DNA of 64,000 nt from an uncultured Gammaproteobacteria bacterium (GCA_964349125.1 CAYGFH010000001.1:772801-836800), one strand, 5' to 3'; counted from the first letter of the stretch, positions 4,090-44,443 are shown. Notes: generated by a model not told the origin, from the sequence alone. Numbers and translations are program-made.

Positions 4090-4913
4090 AAAAAATATCC
4101 AAAGAGGACATAGCATCAATTCACACGCCGGTGTCGACAAGTCATAAAGGTCAAAACGGCAGATTATTGCTCATCGGGGGGAGCAAACTATTTCACGCAG
4201 CGAGTCTTTGGTCACTGACTGTAGCCTCTCGACTTGTAGACCTGGTCCATTTCTCAAGCGTAGAAGAGAATAATGAATTGGTAAAATTGGCAAAGCAGGA
4301 ATTTAGAAATGGCATCGTTATCGCAAGATCAGACATCGAATCATATATTGAGGAAGATGACAGCATATTAATCGGTCCTGGAATGACCAGAGACAGTGAA
4401 ACGAGTGAGTTAACCAATAAACTGCTTCGTGCATACCCGAAGAAACAGTGGATAATAGATGCGGGTGCGCTTCAGATGTTGGATATTAACCTCATTCCTC
4501 CCAGAGCGATCCTCACACCGCACAAGGGTGAATTTGATCAGCTATGTGAACGCGCAAATATCACAATAGGAGAATCAGGCGACGAAGATACCGTTGCCAC
4601 ACTGGCGCTGAAATGCCATTGTATTGTCCTTCGTAAAGGACTCGTGGATATAGCGTCTGATGGAAAAGAGATATATATGATTGAGGGAGGGAATGCGGGT
4701 ATGACAAAAGGTGGAACAGGGGATGTCCTTGCAGGCCTTATCGCTGCGCTTTCCTGTACAAACGCTCCTATGCTTTCTGTGACTGCCGGTAGTTATATAA
4801 ATAAATATGCCGGGGACATGTTATTCGAGAGGGTAGGGCCTTTTTTTAATGCGTCCGATCTTGCATCTCAGATACCTATAGCACTGAATACGGTCTTGTT
4901 TGGTCCCAAGTAA
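4086..4913 (+). CDS. nnrD: ADP-dependent NAD(P)H-hydrate dehydratase (YjeF C-terminal domain)
   Basis: HKGQNGRLLLIGGS and GGTGDVLAGLIAAL motifs. ATGA overlap with recF. Confidence 0.8.
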   Translation: MKKISKEDIASIHTPVSTSHKGQNGRLLLIGGSKLFHAASLWSLTVASRLVDLVHFSSVEENNELVKLAKQEFRNGIVIARSDIESYIEEDDSILIGPGMTRDSETSELTNKLLRAYPKKQWIIDAGALQMLDINLIPPRAILTPHKGEFDQLCERANITIGESGDEDTVATLALKCHCIVLRKGLVDIASDGKEIYMIEGGNAGMTKGGTGDVLAGLIAALSCTNAPMLSVTAGSYINKYAGDMLFERVGPFFNASDLASQIPIALNTVLFGPK

Positions 4914-25187: not shown

Positions 25188-25619
25188 ATGAAAAATATGA
25201 TGGTTATTCTTCTGGTAATCGCCGTGCTCGGTGGAGGATATTATGCGCTCAGTGGCAAAAAATCTGACTCAATGGCTCCTGCTACTGATTCTATGATGGA
25301 AAAAGCTCCTGAATCGACCGGTGCGGTGATGCAGGTCGGTGAAGTGAAGGAGTTTGCCGTTGATAGTTTTGAAATGGGCTTTTCACTCAAGACTTTAACC
25401 GTAAAAAAAGGTGATACGGTGAAAATTACGCTAACAAATTCCGGTAAATATACGCATGATTGGGTAGTGGATGAATTCAGTGCCAGAACCAAAGTCATAA
25501 AAAATGGAGAAACCGACAGCATAACATTTGTAGCTGACAAAACCGGCTCATTTGAATACTATTGCAGTGTCATGACGCACCGACAGCAGGGGATGGTTGG
25601 CAAGTTGATAGTCGAATAA
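25188..25619 (+). CDS. cupredoxin-like (type-1 copper) domain protein, membrane-anchored
   Basis: N-terminal TM. His...Cys-x-x-x-x-His...Met ligand pattern (YTHDW, YYCSVMTHRQQGM). Confidence 0.6.
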   Translation: MKNMMVILLVIAVLGGGYYALSGKKSDSMAPATDSMMEKAPESTGAVMQVGEVKEFAVDSFEMGFSLKTLTVKKGDTVKITLTNSGKYTHDWVVDEFSARTKVIKNGETDSITFVADKTGSFEYYCSVMTHRQQGMVGKLIVE

Positions 25620-25658
25620 TACGACTTAGCCAAAACGAACATACAGAAAAACAATAAA

Positions 25659-25687
25659 ACGCTCTCGAAAGAGGGCGTTTTTTTTGC
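25659..25687 (+). terminator. rho-independent terminator after cupredoxin gene
   Basis: CGCTCTC-gaaa-GAGGGCG stem followed by a 9-T tract. Confidence 0.75.
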
Positions 25688-25791
25688 CGTGTGTAGACTA
25701 AATTCTGTCGGGAGAATGCCGGTGTGAAGCATACCGAAGGCAGACCCATTCTCACACATACAATAGTGTTGATGGGTGTAGGAACGGAGTA

Positions 25792-25947
25792 TTAAACAAA
25801 ACGGCGGACAGCCGTATTGGGATCTGCAGAATCAGCTGATGCTGTCGTATCGTTTGCTTCGTCGGTATCCAATGAGATTTCTTCCACGATAAATTTTCGT
25901 TGTTCTGCATCGTAATACATAATGCGTGCTCCATTTGTACGGTTCAT
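25792..25947 (-). CDS. small acidic protein (51 aa) with strong RBS, below ORF-track cutoff
   Basis: AAAGGAGGTG lies 7 nt upstream of the ATG at 25947. TAA at 25792-25794. Confidence 0.35.
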   Translation of the reverse strand: MNRTNGARIMYYDAEQRKFIVEEISLDTDEANDTTASADSADPNTAVRRFV

Positions 25948-25968
25948 ATATTCACCTCCTTTCTGCCC

Positions 25969-25994
25969 AAAAAAAACTCCCTGTTTTGAGGGAG
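25969..25994 (-). terminator. intrinsic terminator-like hairpin plus U8 in the 5' leader of the small ORF (minus strand)
   Basis: CTCCCT-caaaac-AGGGAG then TTTTTTTT on the minus strand, directly 5' of the RBS. Confidence 0.55.
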
Positions 25995-26113
25995 TGTTCG
26001 ATTCGCTCGCGTAGTTTGTTGTTTACGCCGTCGAACAATCCCTCATTCGAAGGGATGTCTGTTTGACGATTGTAATGCAAAAAAATGCGCGCGAATTCAT
26101 AGCTTCTAAAAAG

Positions 26114-26142
26114 AGTATAGTCCGCACTATCGTGTTAGTCAA
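26114..26142 (-). promoter_or_regulatory. minus-strand promoter TTGACT-17-TATACT (divergent from csoR)
   Basis: Reverse-strand TTGACT (26137-26142) and TATACT (26114-26119). Confidence 0.45.
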
Positions 26143-26165
26143 GTGTAATGAACAGAACACACCAC

Positions 26166-26195
26166 TTGACATCTTACCTATACCCATGGTATAGG
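26166..26195 (+). promoter_or_regulatory. csoR promoter (TTGACA, extended -10 TGgTATAGG)
   Basis: TTGACA at 26166-26171, 18-nt spacer, TATAGG at 26190-26195. The ATG lies 8 nt further on, so the transcript is near-leaderless. Confidence 0.5.
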
Positions 26196-26197
26196 TA
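26175..26197 (+). promoter_or_regulatory. putative CsoR operator: perfect 10-bp inverted repeat TACCTATACC-cat-GGTATAGGTA
   Basis: Perfect palindrome overlapping the -10 region. Its TACC...GGTA ends resemble known CsoR boxes. Confidence 0.6.
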
Positions 26198-26202
26198 TAC
26201 GT

Positions 26203-26490
26203 ATGGCAATAAAACAAAATGCATCTCATAAACAATCAACAATAATTAGCTTCAAAAAAGCACGGTCACTGCTGGATACCATTATATCTATGGTGGAGCA
26301 AGACGAATATTGTGTCGGCATTATGCAACAGAATCTTGCGGCCATTGGACTACTTAAATCAGCGCATGAACAGGTGATGAAAGATCATTTGGAAACATGC
26401 TTTGTTGAGGGTGTACAAAAGGGTGGGGCAAAAAAACAAAAAGAACTTATCGAAGAGCTGCAGACATTAATGAAACTATACAATAAATAA
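26203..26490 (+). CDS. csoR: CsoR/RcnR family metal-sensing transcriptional repressor
   Basis: DUF156 fold. Ligand residues Cys (DEYC), His (KDH) and Cys (ETC) are in the expected positions. Confidence 0.8.
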   Translation: MAIKQNASHKQSTIISFKKARSLLDTIISMVEQDEYCVGIMQQNLAAIGLLKSAHEQVMKDHLETCFVEGVQKGGAKKQKELIEELQTLMKLYNK

Positions 26491-26510
26491 ATGGTTACTA
26501 AAGGAGGAAT

Positions 26511-27077
26511 ATGAAACAACATGTCCACATAGTATATGTAGCAGTAGCACTGATAGTTGGGATTGCAATAGGGTTTAGTGTGACGCCGGAGTATGCACAG
26601 ATGAAATCTGAGAAGCAAAGTCCCATGATGAGTATCGGCAGAGCTGATAAATATGTCGATCTCCGGTTTATTGACGGGATGATTGCACATCACCAGGCGG
26701 CTATCTATCTAGCGCAACAGGCGAAAGAACATTCAAAACGATCTGATATTCAGGCGCTTGCAAGTACCATTATCGCCGTTGACACGGAAGGAATTGAAAA
26801 ACTATATACCCTAAAGAAAACATGGTTTGGCAATACAAAAAAAATCTCCCAATTTACGAAAGTTCAGCTGGGATCGGCGGATGACCAGTTTGATCTGCGT
26901 TTTATAAACGCACTGGAAGCGCATCATGAGGAGGCGATAGACGTTGCAAAAGAGATGCAAACGAAGTCAACCAGAAGCGAGGTGCTCACCCTTGCGGGTG
27001 ATGTTATCGCAGGGCTGTCGGCTGGCATTAAAACATTGACGGAGTGGAGAGGAGACTGGTATGGAATCAACAAATAA
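26511..27077 (+). CDS. DUF305 domain protein (CopM-like periplasmic copper-binding)
   Basis: Duplicated DLRFI..MI.HH..AI motifs. N-terminal TM. Confidence 0.75.
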   Translation: MKQHVHIVYVAVALIVGIAIGFSVTPEYAQMKSEKQSPMMSIGRADKYVDLRFIDGMIAHHQAAIYLAQQAKEHSKRSDIQALASTIIAVDTEGIEKLYTLKKTWFGNTKKISQFTKVQLGSADDQFDLRFINALEAHHEEAIDVAKEMQTKSTRSEVLTLAGDVIAGLSAGIKTLTEWRGDWYGINK

Positions 27078-29358
27078 GCAAAGAGTGTTACCTGTTCGCG
27101 GCATGCACTGTGCAAGCTGTGCAAACATCATTACCAAGCGCCTGAAAAAAGTCCAAGGGGTTTCAGATGTGTCAGTAAATTTTGCAACAGAAAAGGCGTC
27201 TGTAACATATGATTCCGAGCACGCATCAGTCGCGTCTTTGAATGAATCTATTGCTCCCCTCGGCTATTCACTGGTAGATGAGACAGTGAAGGAAACGGCT
27301 TCCAAAGGTTCCGGAAATACTACGGTAGACCATGCGCATCACGCACAAACAGACGAAGATATGGATCGTGCATACAATGAAATGCAGCAGACATTACCAT
27401 TCTCTTTACTTGTATTTGCGGCAATGTTATGGGAAATCTCATCGTCAGTATTTCCCGGGGTTCCTCCTGTGCCTGTTCCCATGACGTTTTTTACGTTGAT
27501 ACTGGCAGTTATCTCCTCGGGAATTTTGTTTGGTCCGGGATTTCAATTTATTTCAGCTATCGGCAAGTTTCTTACCTATAAAGTTGCAAACATGGATACG
27601 CTGATCGGAATTGGAACGCTTGTTGCCTACGTGTACTCTATGATTCGTATTGTGTTTCCTCAAACGCTCACCTCGTTGAGATTTGATGAAACGGTGTATT
27701 TTGATGTCGTTGTGGTTGTCATCGGGTTTATTAAATTGGGCAAATATCTGGAAATTCGTTCAAAACGAAGAACCGGTGAAGCACTGAAAAAACTAATGCA
27801 GCTTCAGGCAAAGACCGCCGTTGTAAAGCGGGGCTCCGTTGAGCTGGAGCTTCCCATTGAGCAGGTGAACGTTGGCGATATTGTGTTGGTGAAGCCGGGA
27901 AGCTCAATTCCTCTTGATGGTGATGTAGTGTCCGGGGAATCATCCGTTGACGAATCCATGGTGACAGGAGAGTCGCTTCCAGTGGATGTTTCGAAAGGAT
28001 CGCATGTCATAGGATCGACTATGAATATGCAGGGCGCACTCACTGTCCGAGTCACGCGGGCTGTTGCTGATACCGTGCTTTCCCGTATTATGACTATGGT
28101 ATCCGAGGCGCAGGGGTCTAAAGCTGCCATAGAAAAGATCGTCGACAAGGTATCCGGAGTATTTGTTCCGACAGTGCTAATTGTTGCTGCGTTTTCTGCA
28201 CTCGTATGGATTGTTATCGGTTCGGTGTATATAACGCTATCCCAATCTATTGTATTTGCAATTACCTCTGTAGTGGGGATTCTGGTGATAGCCTGTCCGT
28301 GTGCGTTAGGATTGGCAACACCGACGGCAATTATCGTTGCGGTGGGCCGTGCGGCTGGTTTGGGAATTCTTATAAAAGACGCTGATAGTCTGGAGAAGCT
28401 GCACAGTGTAACTGCTGTTGTGATGGATAAAACGGGCACCATAACGCACGGGAAGCCGGCAATCACAGATATCGTGCCAAACGGGAAAACAGGCGCTCAA
28501 TCGCTCATGCGGATACTCGCGTCACTTGAAGCACTCTCAGAGCATCCGCTTGCCAATGCAATAACAGCATATGCGAAGGAACATATAATTACTATTGCTC
28601 CGGTGAAGTCATTTAAAGCCGTAGGTGGACGGGGTGTGCATGGTGACATTGATGGAATTCGGTATATTGCAGGGAATGCCGCGTATATGAGCGAATCAGG
28701 TGTGATTGGTGCATCCGTCGACAGCAGTGCCTATACCAATCAGGGTAAGACACCACTCTTTGTCGCCAAAGGCAAAACGTTTTTGGGTGTTGTGTATGTC
28801 GCAGACAGCGTGAAGCCCGATGCTGCTTTGTCTGTTTCAACACTCAAAAAGCTTGGTATTGAAGTGATAATGGCAACAGGAGATGAAAAGCGTACCGCAG
28901 AGTATATTGCACAACAGGTCGGCATTTCCAGAGTCGAAGCACATGTGGATCCCCAGAAAAAATTTGATATTGTCAAAGCTCTTCAAAAAGAAGGACATAT
29001 TGTTGCGATGGTTGGGGATGGAATAAATGATGCGCCGGCGATTGCAGCTGCTGACATAGGTATTGCCATGAGTACCGGCACTGACGTGGCGATCAGCACG
29101 GCGAATATTACTCTCTTGCATGGCGACATAGCAAAATTGACCCATGCTATCGCATTGTCGAAAAAAACAATGCAAATTATAAAAGAAAATCTCTTTTGGG
29201 CGTTTATTTACAATATCGTTGGAATTCCGCTTGCAGCAGGTGTGCTCTATCCGTTCACCGGAGTCTTTTTAAGCCCGGCGTTTGCGGGGCTTGCTATGGC
29301 GGGAAGCAGCGTGTCGGTTGTAACAAATTCTCTGAGACTAAAGAAAATTAGGATATAA
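27061..29358 (+). CDS. copA: copper-translocating P1B-type ATPase
   Basis: N-terminal HMA GMHCASC. CPC motif, DKTGT, GDGINDAP. Confidence 0.9.
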   Translation: MESTNKQRVLPVRGMHCASCANIITKRLKKVQGVSDVSVNFATEKASVTYDSEHASVASLNESIAPLGYSLVDETVKETASKGSGNTTVDHAHHAQTDEDMDRAYNEMQQTLPFSLLVFAAMLWEISSSVFPGVPPVPVPMTFFTLILAVISSGILFGPGFQFISAIGKFLTYKVANMDTLIGIGTLVAYVYSMIRIVFPQTLTSLRFDETVYFDVVVVVIGFIKLGKYLEIRSKRRTGEALKKLMQLQAKTAVVKRGSVELELPIEQVNVGDIVLVKPGSSIPLDGDVVSGESSVDESMVTGESLPVDVSKGSHVIGSTMNMQGALTVRVTRAVADTVLSRIMTMVSEAQGSKAAIEKIVDKVSGVFVPTVLIVAAFSALVWIVIGSVYITLSQSIVFAITSVVGILVIACPCALGLATPTAIIVAVGRAAGLGILIKDADSLEKLHSVTAVVMDKTGTITHGKPAITDIVPNGKTGAQSLMRILASLEALSEHPLANAITAYAKEHIITIAPVKSFKAVGGRGVHGDIDGIRYIAGNAAYMSESGVIGASVDSSAYTNQGKTPLFVAKGKTFLGVVYVADSVKPDAALSVSTLKKLGIEVIMATGDEKRTAEYIAQQVGISRVEAHVDPQKKFDIVKALQKEGHIVAMVGDGINDAPAIAAADIGIAMSTGTDVAISTANITLLHGDIAKLTHAIALSKKTMQIIKENLFWAFIYNIVGIPLAAGVLYPFTGVFLSPAFAGLAMAGSSVSVVTNSLRLKKIRI

Positions 29359-29365
29359 TAGATAT

Positions 29366-30397
29366 ATGAACACTATTTGGCTTGCGTTTTTAGCTGGATT
29401 GACAACCGGAGGTATTTCTTGCCTTGCTGTGCAAGGGGGGCTACTGACATCGTCATTGGCCGCTCAGGGTGAAGCATCTGCAGAAGTGTCAGCATCCACC
29501 CGTTTTTCCCGTTTTCAATTTGTTTCAATGTTTTTGCTCGCAAAGTTATTTGCCTACTCTGTGCTTGGGTTTGTGCTTGGATCTATCGGGTCAACCCTGA
29601 CATTATCGCCAAAATTGCTTGGCAGCGTGCAGATAGTTGTCGGCCTGTTTATGCTGGCAACTGCAGCGAGACTGCTCGATATTCATCCAATTTTCCGGTA
29701 TGCCGTTATCCAACCGCCTAAATGGGTGTATCGACTGCTCAAGCGTCAAAGCGTCAATGCGTCAGTGATTACGCCAGCTCTACTTGGGGTGTTAACCGTA
29801 TTAATGCCCTGTGGCGTTACTCAGGCGACCATGGCTGTGGCAGTGGCCAGTGGTGACGCGGTGTTGGGGGCTGCAATTATGGGTGCGTTTGTCCTGGGTA
29901 CCAGCCCTCTATTTTTCGCATTGGGTGCCTCTATTGTAGAGCTCTTACAGAGGCGCTCATTCGTATTTGTCGCCGCGAGTATCGTTGCACTATTTGGTGT
30001 CGTTTCAATAAATGGTGGATTAGGGCTTCGTGGTTCTATATTTACACTGCAGAATTTCTATAAAGCAGCAACCACAGATGTCAGCGTACGCTCAAACAGT
30101 GGAACAATGCCTGTTATGACCCCCGACGGATTTCAGGATGTAAAAATTACAGTCGCAGATTTCGGATACACTGCCTCGTCAAACACATTGAAGGTTGGTA
30201 TTCCTGTGCGGGTAACGCTTGCAACAAAAAGAACTCAAGGGTGTGCCAGGGCGTTTACAGTGCCGGACTATGGAATTTCCAGAATACTTCCTGAAACCGG
30301 GGAGGAAGTCGTTGAATTTACGCCTAAAAAAACGGGGAGACTCGCGTATAGCTGTAGTATGGGCATGTATACGGGGGAGTTTACGGTGATTAATTAG
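29366..30397 (+). CDS. DsbD_2/CcdA-like transmembrane domain fused to C-terminal cupredoxin-like domain
   Basis: AFLAGLTTGGISC and LMPCG TM cysteines. C-terminal Y.CSMGMY ligand-like pattern. Confidence 0.55.
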   Translation: MNTIWLAFLAGLTTGGISCLAVQGGLLTSSLAAQGEASAEVSASTRFSRFQFVSMFLLAKLFAYSVLGFVLGSIGSTLTLSPKLLGSVQIVVGLFMLATAARLLDIHPIFRYAVIQPPKWVYRLLKRQSVNASVITPALLGVLTVLMPCGVTQATMAVAVASGDAVLGAAIMGAFVLGTSPLFFALGASIVELLQRRSFVFVAASIVALFGVVSINGGLGLRGSIFTLQNFYKAATTDVSVRSNSGTMPVMTPDGFQDVKITVADFGYTASSNTLKVGIPVRVTLATKRTQGCARAFTVPDYGISRILPETGEEVVEFTPKKTGRLAYSCSMGMYTGEFTVIN

Positions 30398-34239: not shown

Positions 34240-34268
34240 TTGACTCAATACTTCTTTTCACGTATAAT
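34240..34268 (+). promoter_or_regulatory. consensus promoter TTGACT-17-TATAAT followed by ~175-nt structured leader
   Basis: TTGACT at 34240-34245 and TATAAT at 34263-34268. Downstream hairpins GCAAAT-c-ATTTGC and GAGGGTAGC...GCTGCCCTC. Confidence 0.55.
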
Positions 34269-34443: not shown

Positions 34444-35232
34444 ATGGAATATAGTTATCTTTTGCCCGTGCTAGGCTCAATCGGCTTGATTCTGCTTAGC
34501 CTCAGTTTGCACGGACCCGTGCAGACAGAATCGGAGGTCATTATGGATGAAGGCGGGACATCCGTAATGTACTACCTAGTTCAAACTACCAAGTATGCAA
34601 ACACGGCGGTCTCGTTTGTGTTGATGGCGCTGATGACGCTATTGGTAGTTGATGTATATGTTCCTGGCATGCGTGCAATGGCAGATGCTTTTATCGGTCC
34701 GTATATATGGTGGATGGTATGGATTCCGGCGTTTAACGTCGCATCATCCGTTATTGTATGGGCGATATTTTTCGGCTATAGCGTGCGTCGATTTGGAACT
34801 CTCCGCCCTAATTATGAACATTGGGATGAGTTTCAGGAGCGTTCCCGGAGGACTACCAACACGACCTGGATCAACATTAATGGTCAAAATTGGAATCCGT
34901 TCCAACGCACACAGAAAGCATCGCTTTCGACGCGAGCATCAACCCGCACTTCTTCCAAAGCTAAAGGGAGTTCAAGATCAAGCAGTACCTTGTTTGTTCC
35001 CATGGCGTTGCCAAGCTCGAGGAGCACGACCTCACTTAAGCGGAGCTCCCGTTCCAGCTCATCATCCGGTGATAGCGACTGGGTGAAAATTCTGGCACAG
35101 TTGGGAATTTTCCTTCTGGCGATTCTCGTATTCATTGCCTACGGATTCCTTGCGTGGAAATTCAACGATGGAATCATGGATTTCTGGGACGAAGTGTTCG
35201 TGGAGGATGAATTCGCCATCGCGTCAGAATAA
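34444..35232 (+). CDS. membrane protein with Ser/Arg-rich low-complexity loop
   Basis: About five TM helices. RSSRSSSS low-complexity stretch. Confidence 0.5.
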   Translation: MEYSYLLPVLGSIGLILLSLSLHGPVQTESEVIMDEGGTSVMYYLVQTTKYANTAVSFVLMALMTLLVVDVYVPGMRAMADAFIGPYIWWMVWIPAFNVASSVIVWAIFFGYSVRRFGTLRPNYEHWDEFQERSRRTTNTTWININGQNWNPFQRTQKASLSTRASTRTSSKAKGSSRSSSTLFVPMALPSSRSTTSLKRSSRSSSSSGDSDWVKILAQLGIFLLAILVFIAYGFLAWKFNDGIMDFWDEVFVEDEFAIASE

Positions 35233-35435
35233 TGTACGAAAAAACGGTATCTGCAAGTTTTCCGCCAAATCCAGATGGCGTAGTTGTTTACTCATCATAA
35301 ATCACTGCGCTATCTGGTCCGTTTTAATACCTCATAGTATTGACTATATACTTACTTATTTGATATACTCTTGCAGTTTCTCATTTTAGTAAAAAAAGGT
35401 TTTTTGCAACCTATAATTTTCTTTGATTGGAAACA

Positions 35436-35459
35436 ATGCACATTTACAGTACAAGAGTA
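35436..35459 (+). repeat. partial copy (3' 24 nt, 2 mismatches) of the 316-bp repeat, upstream of gene A
   Basis: ATGCACATTTACAGTACAAGAGTA versus the repeat end ATGCACATTAACAGTTCAAGAGTA. Confidence 0.6.
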
Positions 35460-35642
35460 GTTTAAGTATCCATATACGTGGGACGCACTAGAGGTAGGAG
35501 AGCTTTTTCTCTTACGTTTGTGCGTCTCAATAATTCCATCTTTTTTACACCAGGAGGTGAACCGTTCCAAAAAGTAAGTTTGTATGTAGTACGTTCGTAT
35601 GCACCAAAAATTGATTCAACTAATAGAAAAGGAAAAAATCGT

Positions 35643-36326
35643 ATGGATACCGTAATTGCAAAAACACGTTTGATCGGTTTGGGCGTCATCAATGATGCAT
35701 TTGACTGGGCGATTGACTCCATCTTTGATCTGACGGTGCTTCGTCAGAAGGGGCGTGACCTGGACAAGGTCATCAAGCGCGTCAATCTCATTCAGGACGG
35801 CGTGAACGCCCGCGTTAACGATCTGAATAAGTGGCTCAAGAGTGCCCGCAGGCACGCCAAAGAATTGGATCGCGATATTACCACCATCCTCAAAGACGGG
35901 GATGAATCAAATGATAGCGATGCCGTCCTCCTGCAGGCTGAACTGACGCCTCTTTTGGAGGAAATCGAAAAGCGCGATGGCAAACTCCAGGAAGCAATTA
36001 AGTCGCGAGACGAAAATCAGGAAATGCTCGACTTCCTGGCTCTGCGCCTCAAGCAAGTGACCGATAAGGTCCGCGAACTGACCGAGACCAAGCAAGAGAC
36101 CAAAACGCTCGAAGAAGCGGCAACTGCTGTCGAAAGCACTGAAGATGTTCTTAAGGAAACCGACGGCTTCCAGAATATCGGAGCCCGCATTCTAGAGAAG
36201 AACGGTCGCGCACGCCAGCGTTATGAACGGGTCACTGCCTCTGTCCAGGAATTGAGTGGCAAGGATTCCACACTGGCTGCCGCTCGCGCTAAGATCGCCG
36301 CTCGCAAGGAAGGTCTCACGAAATAG
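35643..36326 (+). CDS. coiled-coil protein, tentatively PspA/IM30-like
   Basis: Almost entirely helical heptad-like sequence. RBS AAAAGGAAAAAA upstream of the internal ATG at 35643. C-terminal block loosely PspA-like. Confidence 0.45.
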   Translation: MDTVIAKTRLIGLGVINDAFDWAIDSIFDLTVLRQKGRDLDKVIKRVNLIQDGVNARVNDLNKWLKSARRHAKELDRDITTILKDGDESNDSDAVLLQAELTPLLEEIEKRDGKLQEAIKSRDENQEMLDFLALRLKQVTDKVRELTETKQETKTLEEAATAVESTEDVLKETDGFQNIGARILEKNGRARQRYERVTASVQELSGKDSTLAAARAKIAARKEGLTK

Positions 36327-36343
36327 TTTTGCATTTCCATTGT

Positions 36344-36659
36344 TTGGAACTACTCTTGAACGAAATGGATAGTTCGAGGATGCAAGCAATGTCCTCCGGA
36401 GGACATTGACGTCGTGAGACAGTCAGTGTTGGTGCCATTAAGGTACCTTGGGATACAGATGATTTGTGATGTGTCGAATTTTATCGACGCCCCATAGACC
36501 ATCCGTATTCCACCCTCTGCAAACTACGGATGTGTATCCGTACTGATGAGTCCAAAAGGACGAATTTGCAGAAAGAAAAGAATCAAGAAATTATGACACC
36601 ACTCCATAGTCGGGGAGTGCGGTCGTAATCGACTGATGCACATTAACAGTTCAAGAGTA
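36344..36659 (+). repeat. 316-bp structured intergenic repeat, copy 1
   Basis: Identical to 38116-38431. 11-bp terminal inverted repeat TACTCTTGAAC/GTTCAAGAGTA. Internal hairpins include CAATGTCCTCC|GGAGGACATTG and competing ATCCGTA/TACGGAT/ATCCGTA. Confidence 0.9.
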
Positions 36660-36802
36660 GTAATAGTAAAACTGGATATGGGTCGATACAAGAATATACT
36701 TCAATGTATGTCTTTGTATCGTCCCATTTTCAGTTGAAGATACGGATGAATATTCGACTTGTTCGAAGCACCGCTGGAATTATCAAAAAAACTACCCAGG
36801 AG

Positions 36803-38104
36803 ATGACCCCCATGAAAGATATCCGTGCTCGATTGTTGACGCTTTTTTTGCTATGTATCTTAGCAGCGTCTGTCGTCCCCACGAATGCCCGCGCGCAATC
36901 CGCGTGTGATAATGGCATTATCGTGGATGAGACCAATTCCCTCAATGTGCAGAAAGTCTGCGAGGCAATGAAGTTGCTGGCACAGAGAGGCGTGGTAGTC
37001 GGTCTGTTTATATCGGATGAACGGTTCGGTTCGGATGATGAGTGGTATGTGCGCGTTGATGATGTGCAGGTAGAGACTCAGGCACGGTTTCCCCAAGTCA
37101 TTGATAGTGTTGAGCGAATCGAACTGCATCAAAGCGGCTACTTTCTCTCAATAGGAGTTGTTGAGGGAGAAATGACTGCAACGCTTGACATCGGTGGAAC
37201 CTTCGGTTCAGATACACCGATTCATACCGCTGATAAGAACGTAAAACAACAGGTGCTTACGGCAATGACAAGTAATGATCCAACGGAAGGTATTGTTGGA
37301 GCGTTCACCGAGGCATACAACGTCGCATATCCTCCCGATCAACCGTTCTCCATGCCGACGTCACAGCCTACTGCAACGCCCCGTCCTCCCGTGGACATGA
37401 AACCCGTTCGAAACTTTTTTGCCGGGTTTGCGGTGTTGGTGATTTTTGCGGTCGCAGGTTGGCTGTTTATCCGCTTTGGCGTTCCTGTGCTTTCGGAACT
37501 CAACTACCTCAAGGTGCTCATAGACCGTACCGGTGAAATCGTTCGTCAGGCAAATCTAGTGCTCGCGGGCGACGAACCTGAAGGAACCCTCCTTTATAGC
37601 CGCATGGAGGCTAACGGTCTTCATGAATATGCAGATATCGAAACGGCGGCTGTCGAGGCAATCCGCAGGACAATGCGCAAAATCGAGCTTGTCATGAGCA
37701 ATCGCAAGATGCTTTTGGACAACGATAAAGAAGGTGTTCGCACTTTATCCTATCGGGAACGTGTTGAGCAGTTGGAGCTTATCTATCTTAAGCTCATAGG
37801 CACGAGCAATACCGTGCTTGAGATGACGGAGGCAGAAATCGCTGAGCTCCTCCACCCCATGATGGGATTCACTCAGGCGGAAGCTGAGACAGATCCGGAC
37901 GTCCGTGCACTCCAATCTCAATCTCGCTTGCTCGAAGGAAAACCCCTGACAGTGAAAATGCGATACACGGAAATTCGTAATGTCACTGAGGCAGGAATCC
38001 TCATCGATATTAAAAACCTGAAGGCACAGCTTGCTGAATTGCGCGACGCGAAAATAGAAGATCGTCCAGCGGTGAACGTCTTTACAAAACGCACGCGTAA
38101 ATAA
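36803..38104 (+). CDS. TPM-domain membrane protein (YgcG-like)
   Basis: Signal peptide, TPM-like block (IVDETNSL...VVVGLFISDE...RIELHQSGYFLSIGVVEG), one TM, then a cytoplasmic helical domain. Start moved to ATG 36803 after RBS CCAGGAG. Confidence 0.55.
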   Translation: MTPMKDIRARLLTLFLLCILAASVVPTNARAQSACDNGIIVDETNSLNVQKVCEAMKLLAQRGVVVGLFISDERFGSDDEWYVRVDDVQVETQARFPQVIDSVERIELHQSGYFLSIGVVEGEMTATLDIGGTFGSDTPIHTADKNVKQQVLTAMTSNDPTEGIVGAFTEAYNVAYPPDQPFSMPTSQPTATPRPPVDMKPVRNFFAGFAVLVIFAVAGWLFIRFGVPVLSELNYLKVLIDRTGEIVRQANLVLAGDEPEGTLLYSRMEANGLHEYADIETAAVEAIRRTMRKIELVMSNRKMLLDNDKEGVRTLSYRERVEQLELIYLKLIGTSNTVLEMTEAEIAELLHPMMGFTQAEAETDPDVRALQSQSRLLEGKPLTVKMRYTEIRNVTEAGILIDIKNLKAQLAELRDAKIEDRPAVNVFTKRTRK

Positions 38105-38115
38105 CAGCACTGCGC

Positions 38116-38431
38116 TTGGAACTACTCTTGAACGAAATGGATAGTTCGAGGATGCAAGCAATGTCCTCCGGAGGACATTGACGTCGTGAGACAGTCAGTG
38201 TTGGTGCCATTAAGGTACCTTGGGATACAGATGATTTGTGATGTGTCGAATTTTATCGACGCCCCATAGACCATCCGTATTCCACCCTCTGCAAACTACG
38301 GATGTGTATCCGTACTGATGAGTCCAAAAGGACGAATTTGCAGAAAGAAAAGAATCAAGAAATTATGACACCACTCCATAGTCGGGGAGTGCGGTCGTAA
38401 TCGACTGATGCACATTAACAGTTCAAGAGTA
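38116..38431 (+). repeat. 316-bp structured intergenic repeat, copy 2
   Basis: Identical to copy 1 as read by eye. Confidence 0.9.
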
Positions 38432-38642
38432 TACATGTTGGTGATTGGACTACAAAATAGGAACAGAAAGTTTCATTTTTTTCTGGGCCTGTTAGTAGTC
38501 CAATATCAAATCCATTCTATTTCCAAGACAAGGAGCATGATCACGACCAATAATCAAAGGGGCGGTTCGCACTTAATTAAGTAAGCCTGGTCAGCTGAAC
38601 AATGGTGATATTTGAAACAAAAAAATCAATGTGGAGCAGAAA

Positions 38643-39815
38643 ATGAATATCAGAAATATCAAAATCGTTCTAGGACTGGTAATTGCGCTTTTGCTGGTTG
38701 CTGCATGCGGTCCCACCCCGCCAATCGTAGGGTATGGTCAGATCGTTGCAAAGCGCAACTTGAATTATGACCAGTTCAAGCAGCCGACAAGCGAAAAATA
38801 CACCAATTATTTCTATGTCGGTAGTAACTTTTCTTCCATCCAAAGCGATAACTTGAAGGTGGATCTTACGGCGGCAGTTGTGTCAGATGCTCAAGTGGGT
38901 ATCTATACCACCGGCTTTGACGAAAATCAGGTGCCCATCGTTCAGTATCTGCCGAAGGGCGTTTACGACAAAATCCCGGACGAGTTCGTTCGAGTAGTCG
39001 GCGCCGCGATTGTTGACGGTCAACATATGGGCGTGTACTGCAACTATACGGAAGGGCAAGAGTCTTTCCTCATTTTGCCTCCCGGCGAACATCCATACCC
39101 AGATTATATGGTGACGCACTGGCCCGTGGGAGACCGGATGTACCGCACTGTGAGCGATGGCGCGTTCAATGCGTACAAAGGCGGAGACACAGGGCCCACA
39201 GGACCTGGTGGCGGAGCTGATTTGGTTGAGACCAAGATCGACAAAGCGGATCTCAAGGACACCGATTTGGACCTGACATACACTGTGGACGTCGTGTTCG
39301 CCTACGATATCATCCAGAAAAACGCAAAGGTGCTCTGCGACCTCGGAAGTCCCGAGAAGGCAATCCAGCAAATGGTTGCGACACCGATGCGCGGAAAAGG
39401 TCGCACCATCACAGGACAGTTCGGCATCGATGTGGACACTCCACAAAATATCGAGCTTCTGCAAGCCGCTCTCCGCGATATGCTCATTGCTGAGAATGTT
39501 GGACTTCCTGGTAATTTCAAACACGTATCGCTTCGAAGTTTGGAAATTGGAACCGCTGAATATCAAGCCGCCATTCAACAGAATGCGACTGACCTGGCGA
39601 CTGCTCAAGCGCGTGGCTTGCTTCTCGCTCAACTGCAAAGAAACGCAGAAGATGAGAACACGCTTAAGGAAACCATTGCGGAAGGTTGGGCAACGCAGAT
39701 GGAAGCGCTCGGTTGCACTGACTCATGGCAATGCCTTTGGGTTGTTCTGAATGCAACCGAAAATACGCCGTATTTCAATGGAAATGACCTTCAGCAGCCG
39801 CCTCAGGTTCCATAG
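38643..39815 (+). CDS. lipoprotein with C-terminal SPFH/band-7-like domain
   Basis: Lipobox LLVAAC. C-terminal V.V.FAYDI...LR...G...VSLRSLEI...A...A.A..A pattern typical of SPFH. RBS GGAG 6 nt before ATG 38643; the track uses GTG 38631. Confidence 0.5.
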   Translation: MNIRNIKIVLGLVIALLLVAACGPTPPIVGYGQIVAKRNLNYDQFKQPTSEKYTNYFYVGSNFSSIQSDNLKVDLTAAVVSDAQVGIYTTGFDENQVPIVQYLPKGVYDKIPDEFVRVVGAAIVDGQHMGVYCNYTEGQESFLILPPGEHPYPDYMVTHWPVGDRMYRTVSDGAFNAYKGGDTGPTGPGGGADLVETKIDKADLKDTDLDLTYTVDVVFAYDIIQKNAKVLCDLGSPEKAIQQMVATPMRGKGRTITGQFGIDVDTPQNIELLQAALRDMLIAENVGLPGNFKHVSLRSLEIGTAEYQAAIQQNATDLATAQARGLLLAQLQRNAEDENTLKETIAEGWATQMEALGCTDSWQCLWVVLNATENTPYFNGNDLQQPPQVP

Positions 39816-39820
39816 CCTGA

Positions 39821-39832
39821 ACACTCTTGAAC
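39821..39832 (+). repeat. isolated copy of repeat terminal motif ACACTCTTGAAC downstream of gene C
   Basis: Matches the 5' inverted-repeat end of the 316-bp element. Confidence 0.45.
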
Positions 39833-40058
39833 TTTAACAATTGAATAATAGGGAATTGGGGACTCTCGAAAAGAGTGTCGTTCAATTTGATGCTGCCGCA
39901 TCTGAGATCTAGAGATTAATTAGTTAGGTGCCTTTGTGCGCCCTGCCAAATTTCTTTAGATCTTCCCTTGTTCGTTTGAGTTTCGATTATATAAATCGAG
40001 ACTGAAATGAGCAGGGGATGGTAATTATGCGTAAGGCAAATATGTTGATTTTACTGTG

Positions 40059-40365: not shown

Positions 40366-40441
40366 TGGGCCCGAAGTTTACCTGGTTGAACGCTTCATTT
40401 GCAATGAAGAGGTAGTCGGTTCGAGTCCGATCGGGTCCACC
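40366..40441 (+). tRNA. tRNA-Ala (anticodon UGC), CCA encoded
   Basis: Full cloverleaf folded by hand. Acceptor GGGCCCG/CGGGTCC with G3:U70, D-arm GTTT/GAAC, anticodon loop TTTGCAA, T-loop TTCGAGT, A73, CCA. Confidence 0.9.
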
Positions 40442-40689
40442 ACGTAACGTCCGAAAGAGCGGACCATGTGGCAAGCCGCAGACAAGAAAGTTCTCGTTTC
40501 GAGACCAGTTACTTCTCTAAGTAACTGATCTCGCGACAAGAGCGCGTTTTGCTCATTAACATTTTGTAAATGACCTTTATATACATGCAGGTGAAATTCC
40601 TGGTATATGAAGTATTGTTATGTAATTAATAAGTAGTTGCATCGTAAGGGATAATCGATTTGATTCTCTTACATGTAAACCCCGATTTA

Positions 40690-40706
40690 ATCGGGGGAAA
40701 ATTTCG
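40690..40706 (+). other. hairpin CCCCGATTTAATCGGGG in the tRNA-23S spacer (partner-like hairpin at 44110-44126)
   Basis: Near-identical hairpins CCCCGATT(T/A)ATATCGGGG flank the 23S 5' and 3' ends, suggesting processing sites. Confidence 0.5.
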
Positions 40707-40764
40707 TAAAATGAACAATGGCCATCCCGCCGCCGAGGCGAGGATGGATCTTTTGTTCTCTGCA

Positions 40765-44095
<3,331 letters not shown>

Positions 44096-44325
44096 AACAA
44101 AGGTTTGATCCCCGATTATATCGGGGTGAAACTCTGTTCAGATACGAATTTTCTGTGTAGGAGCCATTTTGGTTATCCCTTACGGAGCAATTACTTGAGT
44201 GTGTGATGTCATTTACAAAATTTATATGAAGATCTCTGAAGGTATCCCGTTTCACGGGATAGTTCACAGTATGCTTTTTCTCTAGGAATCGAAAAAGCAA
44301 CTGTTCACTAACCGCTTTAGAGTCT

Positions 44326-44443
44326 TCCAGTCTTTTGAGCGACGTGGTACCACCCGATCCCTTTCCGAACTCGGAAGTGAAACGCGTTAGCGCCGACAAT
44401 ACTTGATTCGCGAGAATCTGGGAATATAGGTCAAGGCTGGGGG
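44326..44443 (+). rRNA. 5S ribosomal RNA
   Basis: CCGAACTCGGAAGTGAAACGCGTTAGCGCCGA loop C/helix III consensus. Helix I CCAGTCTT/AAGGCTGG. Confidence 0.8.

Follow-up and report, generated by a model that had tools for sequence, protein, structure and literature searches.

What does it mean when the spacers between neighbouring genes are identical, and what do such genes encode? Both questions are raised by a 64,000-nucleotide stretch of DNA (GCA_964349125.1, CAYGFH010000001.1:772801-836800; hereafter, the window), deposited under the name of an uncultured Gammaproteobacteria bacterium, in which three co-directional genes, here called A, B and C, are separated by two copies of one 316-nt sequence. 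Each full copy of this spacer is, judged by its sequence, the carrier of a hammerhead ribozyme fold that is backed by covariation and for which self-cleavage is predicted. The three proteins are best described as a divergent member of a known module, made of a PspA/IM30 protein, a probable TPM-domain membrane protein and an SPFH/Band-7 lipoprotein, so that the trio itself is of a familiar kind. What is new at the locus, and also most interesting, is the pair of identical spacers with their ribozymes; the protein trio is low in novelty. We regard it as probable, with considerable room for doubt, that the locus is a PspA-type membrane operon whose polycistronic mRNA would be cut by the hammerheads into three end-protected mRNAs.

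Two identical spacers and the hammerhead folds within them

The structured spacer lies on the plus strand at 36344-36659 (copy 1, between A and B, upstream of B) and at 38116-38431 (copy 2, between B and C, upstream of C). A repeat tool returned 300 nt at 100% identity, and direct reading of the sequence gave 316 nt. Both copies stand at equivalent positions in the related contigs L005 and L007, and also in L006, where the 5' half of copy 1 is divergent. The copies are 100% identical within a genome in three assemblies (the window, L005 and L007; 300 nt in the relatives) and about 78% identical between genomes; the identity within genomes indicates that the copies evolve in concert or are selected to stay identical. 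Two other origins of the repeat were rejected, namely an assembly artefact, since the flanks differ and the same arrangement is found in independent assemblies, and integron cassettes with attC sites, since the ends of the repeat are at odds with GTTRRRY and the genes keep one order in different species. When L006 (9520-9860) is set beside L007 (3509-3870), the B protein is identical and the 5' half of the A–B spacer is different; copy 1 of L006 has a 5' half of the type found in L009 and a stem III 5' strand that is one base shorter, which suggests recombination or exchange between spacer alleles. The metagenome contigs L001-L004 and L008 start or end inside the 316-nt repeat, and the locus is often fragmented in public data.

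The spacer is predicted to be highly structured. The ends of a multi-branch fold, within which the hammerhead lies, are tied together by a terminal helix of ACTACTCTTGAAC and GTTCAAGAGTAGT (13 nt per strand; 12 bp in the consensus of four sequences). Folding of a 335-nt region gave a minimum free energy of -127.6 kcal/mol (z -8.5) with the hammerhead junction intact, and the consensus fold across four lineages contains 17 compensatory pairs.

The two type III hammerheads occupy 36517-36571 (ribozyme 1) and 38289-38343 (ribozyme 2), both on the plus strand. Cleavage is predicted between C36524 and U36525 in the first and between C38296 and U38297 in the second, so that 1772 nt of RNA, gene B included, lie between the two predicted sites. 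The Rfam family RF00008 matches at 42.3-42.7 bits with a complete CUGAUGA...GAA core (ribozyme 1: 42.3 bits, E 6e-7), and a purpose-built covariance model, R1, scores ribozyme 1 at 84 bits and finds no copies in the window other than these two. As in RF00008, a three-way junction is formed in which stems I and II are capped by loops and stem III is open, the CUGAUGA...GAA core is present, and the predicted cleavage follows position H17. The difference is that the 15.1-16.1 and 15.2-16.2 pairs are both U-A, which makes the cleavage triplet AAH in place of NUH.

Support for this fold comes from comparison of 11 sequences from the Candidate Phyla Radiation (CPR), in which 95.5% of the cells are paired and 11 pairs have changes on both sides. 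These compensatory changes fall on five of the seven stem III pairs and six of the seven stem I pairs. None of 500 shuffles reached the observed values, and slid controls gave 26-40% pairing. All 11 sequences have one and the same catalytic core, the residue at H17 varies among C, U and A and is never G, and stem I of L009 is maintained despite a 22-nt insertion in its loop.

Several observations weigh against an active ribozyme of the canonical kind. The scores of 42.3-42.7 bits are below the RF00008 gathering score of 48.5, and the pair that is canonically A15.1–U16.1 is swapped to U15.1–A16.1 in every copy, a change reported to reduce activity at least ten-fold (PMC3088659). Furthermore, stem II and GAATT were preset in the pattern used for the search, which leaves stems I and III as the only sources of independent covariation. 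Natural hammerheads with the U15.1-A16.1 pair do self-cleave, weakly or slowly (Perreault et al., 2011; PMC3088659).

The same variant was found by a pattern scan, with one genome per species, at 13 loci of metagenome-assembled genomes from the CPR (Saccharibacteria, Parcubacteria and Gottesmanbacteria, some of them labelled otherwise). The scan also returned two chance matches, in L010 (Butyrivibrio) and L022 (an alphaproteobacterium), which were rejected because they lie within coding sequence and have no stem I. In eight of the 12 other CPR loci (L011, L013-L016, L018, L020 and L024), the variant is flanked by co-directional genes and ends 7-25 nt short of the start codon that follows, with GUCC/GGAC in stem II and GUGU as loop 1; this position fits a role in defining mRNA 5' ends. 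The U15.1-A16.1 variant may be a CPR-wide ribozyme class, located between genes or in 5' untranslated regions (UTRs). In L011, L018 and L020 the strong hammerhead copy is located upstream of an open reading frame (ORF) homologous, with the same N-terminal sequence, to a glycosyltransferase-like ORF of L012, which is itself directly preceded by a weaker hammerhead-like match (4290-4358; R1 25 bits, E 3e-4). A scan of viral contigs for the ribozyme variant gave no match, which argues against a phage origin, and a scan of a metagenome collection with the specific hammerhead DNA pattern gave none either.

Pieces of the spacer recur at the outer borders of the cluster. The initial annotation had assigned each of the three genes its own copy of a structured leader: full copies do precede B and C, A is preceded by a 33-nt fragment only, and the hammerheads inside the repeated leader had been missed. 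The fragment upstream of A (35436-35468, plus strand) lies in the A 5' UTR, derives from the 3' end of the repeat and holds GTACAAGAGTAGT, which is complementary to the beginning of the spacer copy that follows A (copy 1). It is conserved in L005 and L007, with a duplex energy of -20.9 kcal/mol (shuffles, -12.0 ± 3.2). Directly after the stop codon of C (~39821-39841, plus strand), lies a fragment of the 5' end of the repeat, ACACTCTTGAACTTTAAC, whose complement is the 3' end of the spacer copy that precedes C (copy 2); the fragment is conserved in L005 and L009, and its duplexes reach -17.9 to -28.2 kcal/mol (shuffles, about -11 ± 3). A motif search for such repeat-end fragments returned seven matches against 1.3 expected. 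Taken over all genomes examined, complementary ends of 11-16 bp bracket every cistron, at -18 to -28 kcal/mol as compared with -11 to -15 ± 3 for shuffles, and each leader has a long hairpin of its own after the bracket strand. The A 5' UTR as a whole (35233-35642) is 81% identical across three genomes, far above the 39-41% of protein A; a long hairpin, GGGACGCAC...GTGCGTCTC, is conserved within it, the box CAGGAGGTGAACCGTT, some 70 nt ahead of the A start codon, is invariant, and the region gave no Rfam match.

A divergent trio of PspA, TPM and SPFH proteins

The initial annotation had placed three co-localised genes here and had read them as a PspA-like, a TPM-domain and an SPFH-like lipoprotein gene. 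The ORFs are confirmed, all in one direction on the plus strand: A at 35643-36326 (227 aa), B at 36812-38104 (430 aa) and C at 38643-39815 (390 aa). Their starts were fixed by Shine-Dalgarno sequences and by the lengths of homologues, on both of which grounds the longer mechanical starts at 35478, 36704 and 38631 (giving a 282-aa A and a 466-aa B) were rejected as too early. The profile searches that the annotation had called for had a mixed outcome: direct Pfam scans of the three proteins are blank, and the family guesses hold after deep searches. NCBIfam and PADLOC scans returned nothing for the three proteins, or coiled-coil noise for A. A word-indexed homologue search found just one to five relatives per protein, and by this count A, B and C appear to be narrow, fast-evolving genes.

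Gene A encodes a predicted cytoplasmic protein which, through intermediate sequences only, is placed as a fast-evolving member of the PspA/IM30 family (ESCRT-III superfamily). A phmmer search of 1.84 billion representatives returned 53 proteins at E ≤ 1e-3, nearly all of them 228-255 aa long and aligned from residue 1-5 to about residue 225. Such uniform, end-to-end matches indicate real homology, because a coiled-coil artefact would draw long proteins of all sizes. PF04012 (PspA_IM30) was found in 39 of 49 relatives of A. The full-length links run through P0012 (E 3e-13), P0014 (E 9e-9) and P0016 (E 2e-8), for which PF04012 scores 34.3, 48.5 and 53.5 bits against a threshold of 33.9; P0017 (48.2 bits) and P0018 are also above it. 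A profile of the A family matches the Vipp1/PspA chains 6zvr, 8qbw and 4whe over their full length (E 1e-11), and hhalign gave it a 93% probability against E. coli PspA, the sequence used for the latter scoring 166 bits on PF04012. The resemblance, formerly noticed for the C-terminus, is thereby borne out over the whole length. The assignment is weakened by the behaviour of A by itself, which has no PF04012 match at E ≤ 1 and only sub-threshold coiled-coil noise in Pfam, and by that of narrow A-clade profiles, which miss the PspA structures in the PDB and give 0.2-0.3% probability against E. coli PspA by hhalign.

Gene B encodes a protein with a signal peptide (cleaved after ARA and before Q), a TPM-like ectodomain (residues ~32-175), a Pro-rich linker, a membrane helix (~200-222) and a cytoplasmic helical domain (223-430). 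This is the layout of the YgcG/YdjH-like proteins, in which an external TPM-like domain is followed by a membrane helix and a cytoplasmic tail; it had been proposed in the initial annotation and can be read from the sequence and alignment. Cys32 and Cys50 of the ectodomain are conserved in the alignment, and the cytoplasmic region of about 200 aa is nearly invariant there and belongs to no known family. In the AlphaFold2 model the ectodomain has the element order β-α-β-α-β-β-α-α, and in a Foldseek search of the PDB with this ectodomain seven of the eight top matches were TPM structures, weak in score (E 0.018-0.4, TM-score ~0.5) and covering the whole targets. The structures concerned are 4oa3, 2lt2, 6adq_J, 2kw7, 5anp and 7tbr, and the matches include BA42, BA41, PG_0361, Rhom172_1776 and a subunit of the mycobacterial supercomplex. 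Against this stand the absence of a PF04536 (TPM) match for B and its orthologs in Pfam, the absence of a match between the B profile and PDB sequences, the weak Foldseek E-values, and the low confidence of the model, whose predicted local distance difference test score (pLDDT) has a mean of 47 and reaches 58-78 in the ectodomain only (residues 35-175). On this moderate evidence, the ectodomain of B is probably a TPM domain.

Gene C encodes a lipoprotein composed of an N-terminal beta-rich region, an SPFH/Band-7 domain and a long coiled-coil helix, with conserved cysteines. The cysteine of its lipobox, LLVAAC, is conserved in all full-length homologues. The PF01145 (Band_7) threshold of 23.6 bits is exceeded by the L005 ortholog, which is syntenic (44.5 bits), and is missed by P0002 (19.8 bits); C of the window has no Band_7 match in the Pfam scan, and a C profile found nothing among PDB sequences. 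In Foldseek the top 36 PDB matches of the C model were all SPFH proteins, among them prohibitin, HflK/C, stomatin, erlin, flotillin and QmcA (E down to 8e-7, probability 1.00, 250-300 columns). The low confidence of the underlying AlphaFold2 model (pLDDT 50) counts against this result. Sequence and model together identify C as an SPFH lipoprotein, as first supposed, with a putative extracytoplasmic location, and the structure comparison that had been suggested for it agrees.

The arrangement of these genes is conserved. The order glutamate dehydrogenase (GDH), TM262 (the 262-aa membrane protein encoded upstream of A), A, B, C, tRNA-Ala and 23S recurs in L005; L006 and L007 have the same order up to B, where both contigs end, and L009 has a partial cluster of C and its upstream spacer. 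The order TM262–A–B–C is thus kept in two related Saccharibacteria lineages, and a third keeps C with its spacer, which answers the call of the initial annotation for a check of neighbourhood conservation. Compared with the window, the relatives have amino acid identities of 39-41% in A, 74-78% in B and 39-61% in C, as against 67-70% in the housekeeping GDH. A scan of the metagenome collection with a B protein pattern gave no match. On the unrelated contig L030, the PspA homologue P0014, of the same subfamily as A, adjoins a bona fide TPM protein of 747 aa (PF04536 at 33 bits) that has the layout of B, from signal peptide and TPM domain to membrane helix and cytoplasmic tail, and whose mature N-terminus resembles that of B (AQxxC..IxDET). 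Because the order recurs in relatives and a PspA–TPM adjacency is found in an unrelated contig, the co-localisation of A, B and C, as far as gene order can tell, is not due to chance.

The suggestion of the initial annotation that the trio is undescribed is wrong. Its counterpart is the pspA-ydjGHI operon of Bacillus subtilis, which encodes PspA, YdjG, YdjH and the SPFH protein YdjI, and in which YdjH and YdjG are required to bring PspA and YdjI to the membrane, YdjH contacting both (PMC8581546). YdjH is a TPM-domain protein, and PspA–TPM and PspA–Band-7 associations have been catalogued (Ravi et al., 2024; PMC11237479). Both loci begin with a PspA/IM30 gene followed by co-directional genes for a TPM membrane protein, the candidate membrane anchor of PspA, and an SPFH/Band-7 protein. 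The differences are several. YdjI is soluble and cytoplasmic with a C-terminal zinc finger, whereas C is a secreted lipoprotein with an additional N-terminal beta-rich region; B has its conserved cytoplasmic helical domain of ~200 aa; A, B and C are too divergent for direct profile matches and belong to a CPR host; and the cistrons are parted by ribozyme-bearing structured spacers. Two further differences count against the reading of the locus given below, namely that no YdjG-like zinc-ribbon membrane protein was found at this locus, and that C, being outside the cell, cannot bind PspA directly as the cytoplasmic YdjI does.

Since all three family assignments survive testing, a role of the trio in envelope or membrane stress is a reasonable inference by analogy. 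The locus would be the Saccharibacteria version of a PspA-type membrane maintenance or stress operon, in which A may act as the effector, coating or repairing the membrane from within the cell. B would span the membrane to connect A in the cytoplasm with C outside and, as the likely anchor or adaptor, would recruit A, as YdjH does PspA in B. subtilis, and C would be an oligomeric scaffold on the outer face of the membrane, beside the ectodomain of B.

Processing of the transcript and competing explanations

A sigma-70-like promoter with an extended TG (TTGACT-18-TATACT; 35340-35369, plus strand) is predicted upstream of A. It scores 10/12, and its -35 box, spacing and -10 box are conserved in L005 and L007; a consensus promoter scan by itself does not exceed the chance count. 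No convincing intrinsic terminators were found between A, B and C. The presence of weak promoter-like sites also before B and C is a point against a single transcript, as it makes separate transcription possible.

In the reading that we favour, A, B and C would be transcribed together from the conserved promoter upstream of A, and the two hammerheads would cut this transcript after C36524 and C38296 to yield three mRNAs. Each mRNA would retain halves or fragments of the spacer, and with them complementary 5' and 3' ends (GTTCAAGAGTAGT and ACTACTCTTGAAC), so that its ends might be shielded from exonucleases and its level could be set independently. There is precedent for such cutting, which has been demonstrated on polycistronic RNAs for gene-flanking hammerheads (Perreault et al., 2011; PMC3088659). 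The clustered prophage hammerheads described in that study resemble the present ones in that several like-oriented ribozymes border single genes within a co-directional block, in the proposed cutting of a long transcript into gene-length mRNAs, and in the natural U15.1-A16.1 variant (PMC3088659). The present locus differs from them in being chromosomal and syntenic rather than prophage-borne, in having its ribozymes inside a larger conserved fold of 316 nt, in the identity of the copies within a genome in three assemblies, and in fragments that would give the mRNAs complementary ends. Synthetic insulators of the RiboJ type place a self-cleaving hammerhead just upstream of a ribosome-binding site and thereby produce a defined, hairpin-capped 5'-OH end. 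In contrast to these, the elements studied here are natural, lie between the genes of an operon and are 240-300 nt upstream of the start codons.

The main alternative, which we consider unlikely but the best placed among the rivals, is that the hammerhead is a relic with little or no activity left and that the spacers serve as protein-recognised processing or stabilising structures, or as transcriptional insulators. The cistron-bracketing helices of 12-16 bp could, for example, be RNase III sites, like the stems around 16S and 23S rRNA. Such a view draws on the weakening of catalysis by the U15.1-A16.1 swap (PMC3088659), on the location of the locus directly upstream of an rRNA operon, and on the bracketing helices that are present where there is no ribozyme, upstream of A and downstream of C. 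It is harder to reconcile with a core that stays invariant while stems I and III compensate across distant CPR lineages, a pattern expected only under selection for the hammerhead fold, or with the avoidance of G at H17 and the recurrence of the motif without the large element in other CPR genomes.

Less probable still, and doubtful in our estimate, is the idea that the two identical spacers serve to produce an mRNA in circular or panhandle form, possibly with conditional control of the ribozyme. A double cut would free the 1772-nt RNA of gene B, on which the 5' half-element from copy 1 and the 3' half-element from copy 2 would together rebuild the complete ribozyme fold, bringing the 5'-OH and the 2',3'-cyclic phosphate side by side, where the ribozyme itself or an RtcB-type ligase could join them. 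The halves would have to fit each other, which would explain the 100% identity of the copies in most genomes examined. With the weak U15.1-A16.1 core enclosed in a large fold, cleavage might also depend on a condition, for example stress or the presence of a ligand, and a membrane-stress operon would then be under ribozyme control.

It is quite improbable that A, B and C are neighbours by descent only, with no joint work, and that the term envelope stress over-reads three weak and unrelated similarities. No protein of the window reaches a Pfam threshold by itself, and the low identities of the fast-evolving A and C (39-61%) are in keeping with this scepticism. However, three independent assignments each lead to a family known to be linked genetically and physically to the others, the order is conserved, PspA and TPM genes are adjacent in a distant contig, and the genes have RNA elements in common.

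The least probable of the explanations weighed is that the repeat is a selfish MITE-like (miniature inverted-repeat transposable element) or retrozyme-like mobile element, inserted twice by chance and without a role in the expression of A, B and C: its 13-nt terminal inverted repeats, its perfectly identical copies and the breaking of assemblies within it would suit such an element, but the copies occupy the same two sites in L005, L007 and L006 (in the last with a divergent 5' half of copy 1), differ by about 22% between genomes though identical within one, are the only two found by a genome-wide pattern scan of the L005 genome (L019) and likewise number two in the 64-kb window, are accompanied by conserved partial fragments flanking A and C, and have no counterpart in the viral contigs scanned for the ribozyme variant.

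Genomic setting and biological meaning

Immediately upstream of A, in the window and in all three relatives that cover the position (L005, L006 and L007), lies TM262 (34444-35232, plus strand), a multi-pass membrane protein of 262 aa with a Ser/Arg-rich loop and 68-74% amino acid identity in these relatives. It has a promoter-like site of its own at 34240-34268 and no match in Pfam, NCBIfam or PADLOC, and on account of its synteny it may be a fourth component of the module. Further upstream are GDH, thioredoxin reductase and a copper-homeostasis block (25188-30397), the last comprising a cupredoxin, a DUF305 protein, a CopA-type P-type ATPase with an HMA domain and a DsbD_2–cupredoxin fusion. 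Downstream of C, tRNA-Ala(UGC) is followed by the 23S and then the 5S rRNA gene (40367-44442). A 270-nt group I intron lies within the 23S rRNA at 43453-43722 (RF00028, 65.8 bits), and no 16S gene was found in this rRNA operon or elsewhere in the window.

A link between PspA, TPM and SPFH proteins was known before from Firmicutes. The present host belongs to the Saccharibacteria (CPR) and is an episymbiont with a genome of about 1 Mb. The presence of the trio in such an organism suggests that the module is old and has been retained despite strong genome reduction. Because the SPFH partner here is predicted to lie outside the cell, the TPM membrane protein, rather than the SPFH protein, is likely to be the common link to PspA.

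Natural bacterial hammerheads are mostly known from prophages. The present locus offers a chromosomal and syntenic case with clear covariation and a non-canonical core that is conserved over several CPR phyla. The identical copies, together with the complementary mRNA ends that they would create, lead to the testable hypothesis of ribozyme-driven operon processing, possibly extending to mRNA circularisation.

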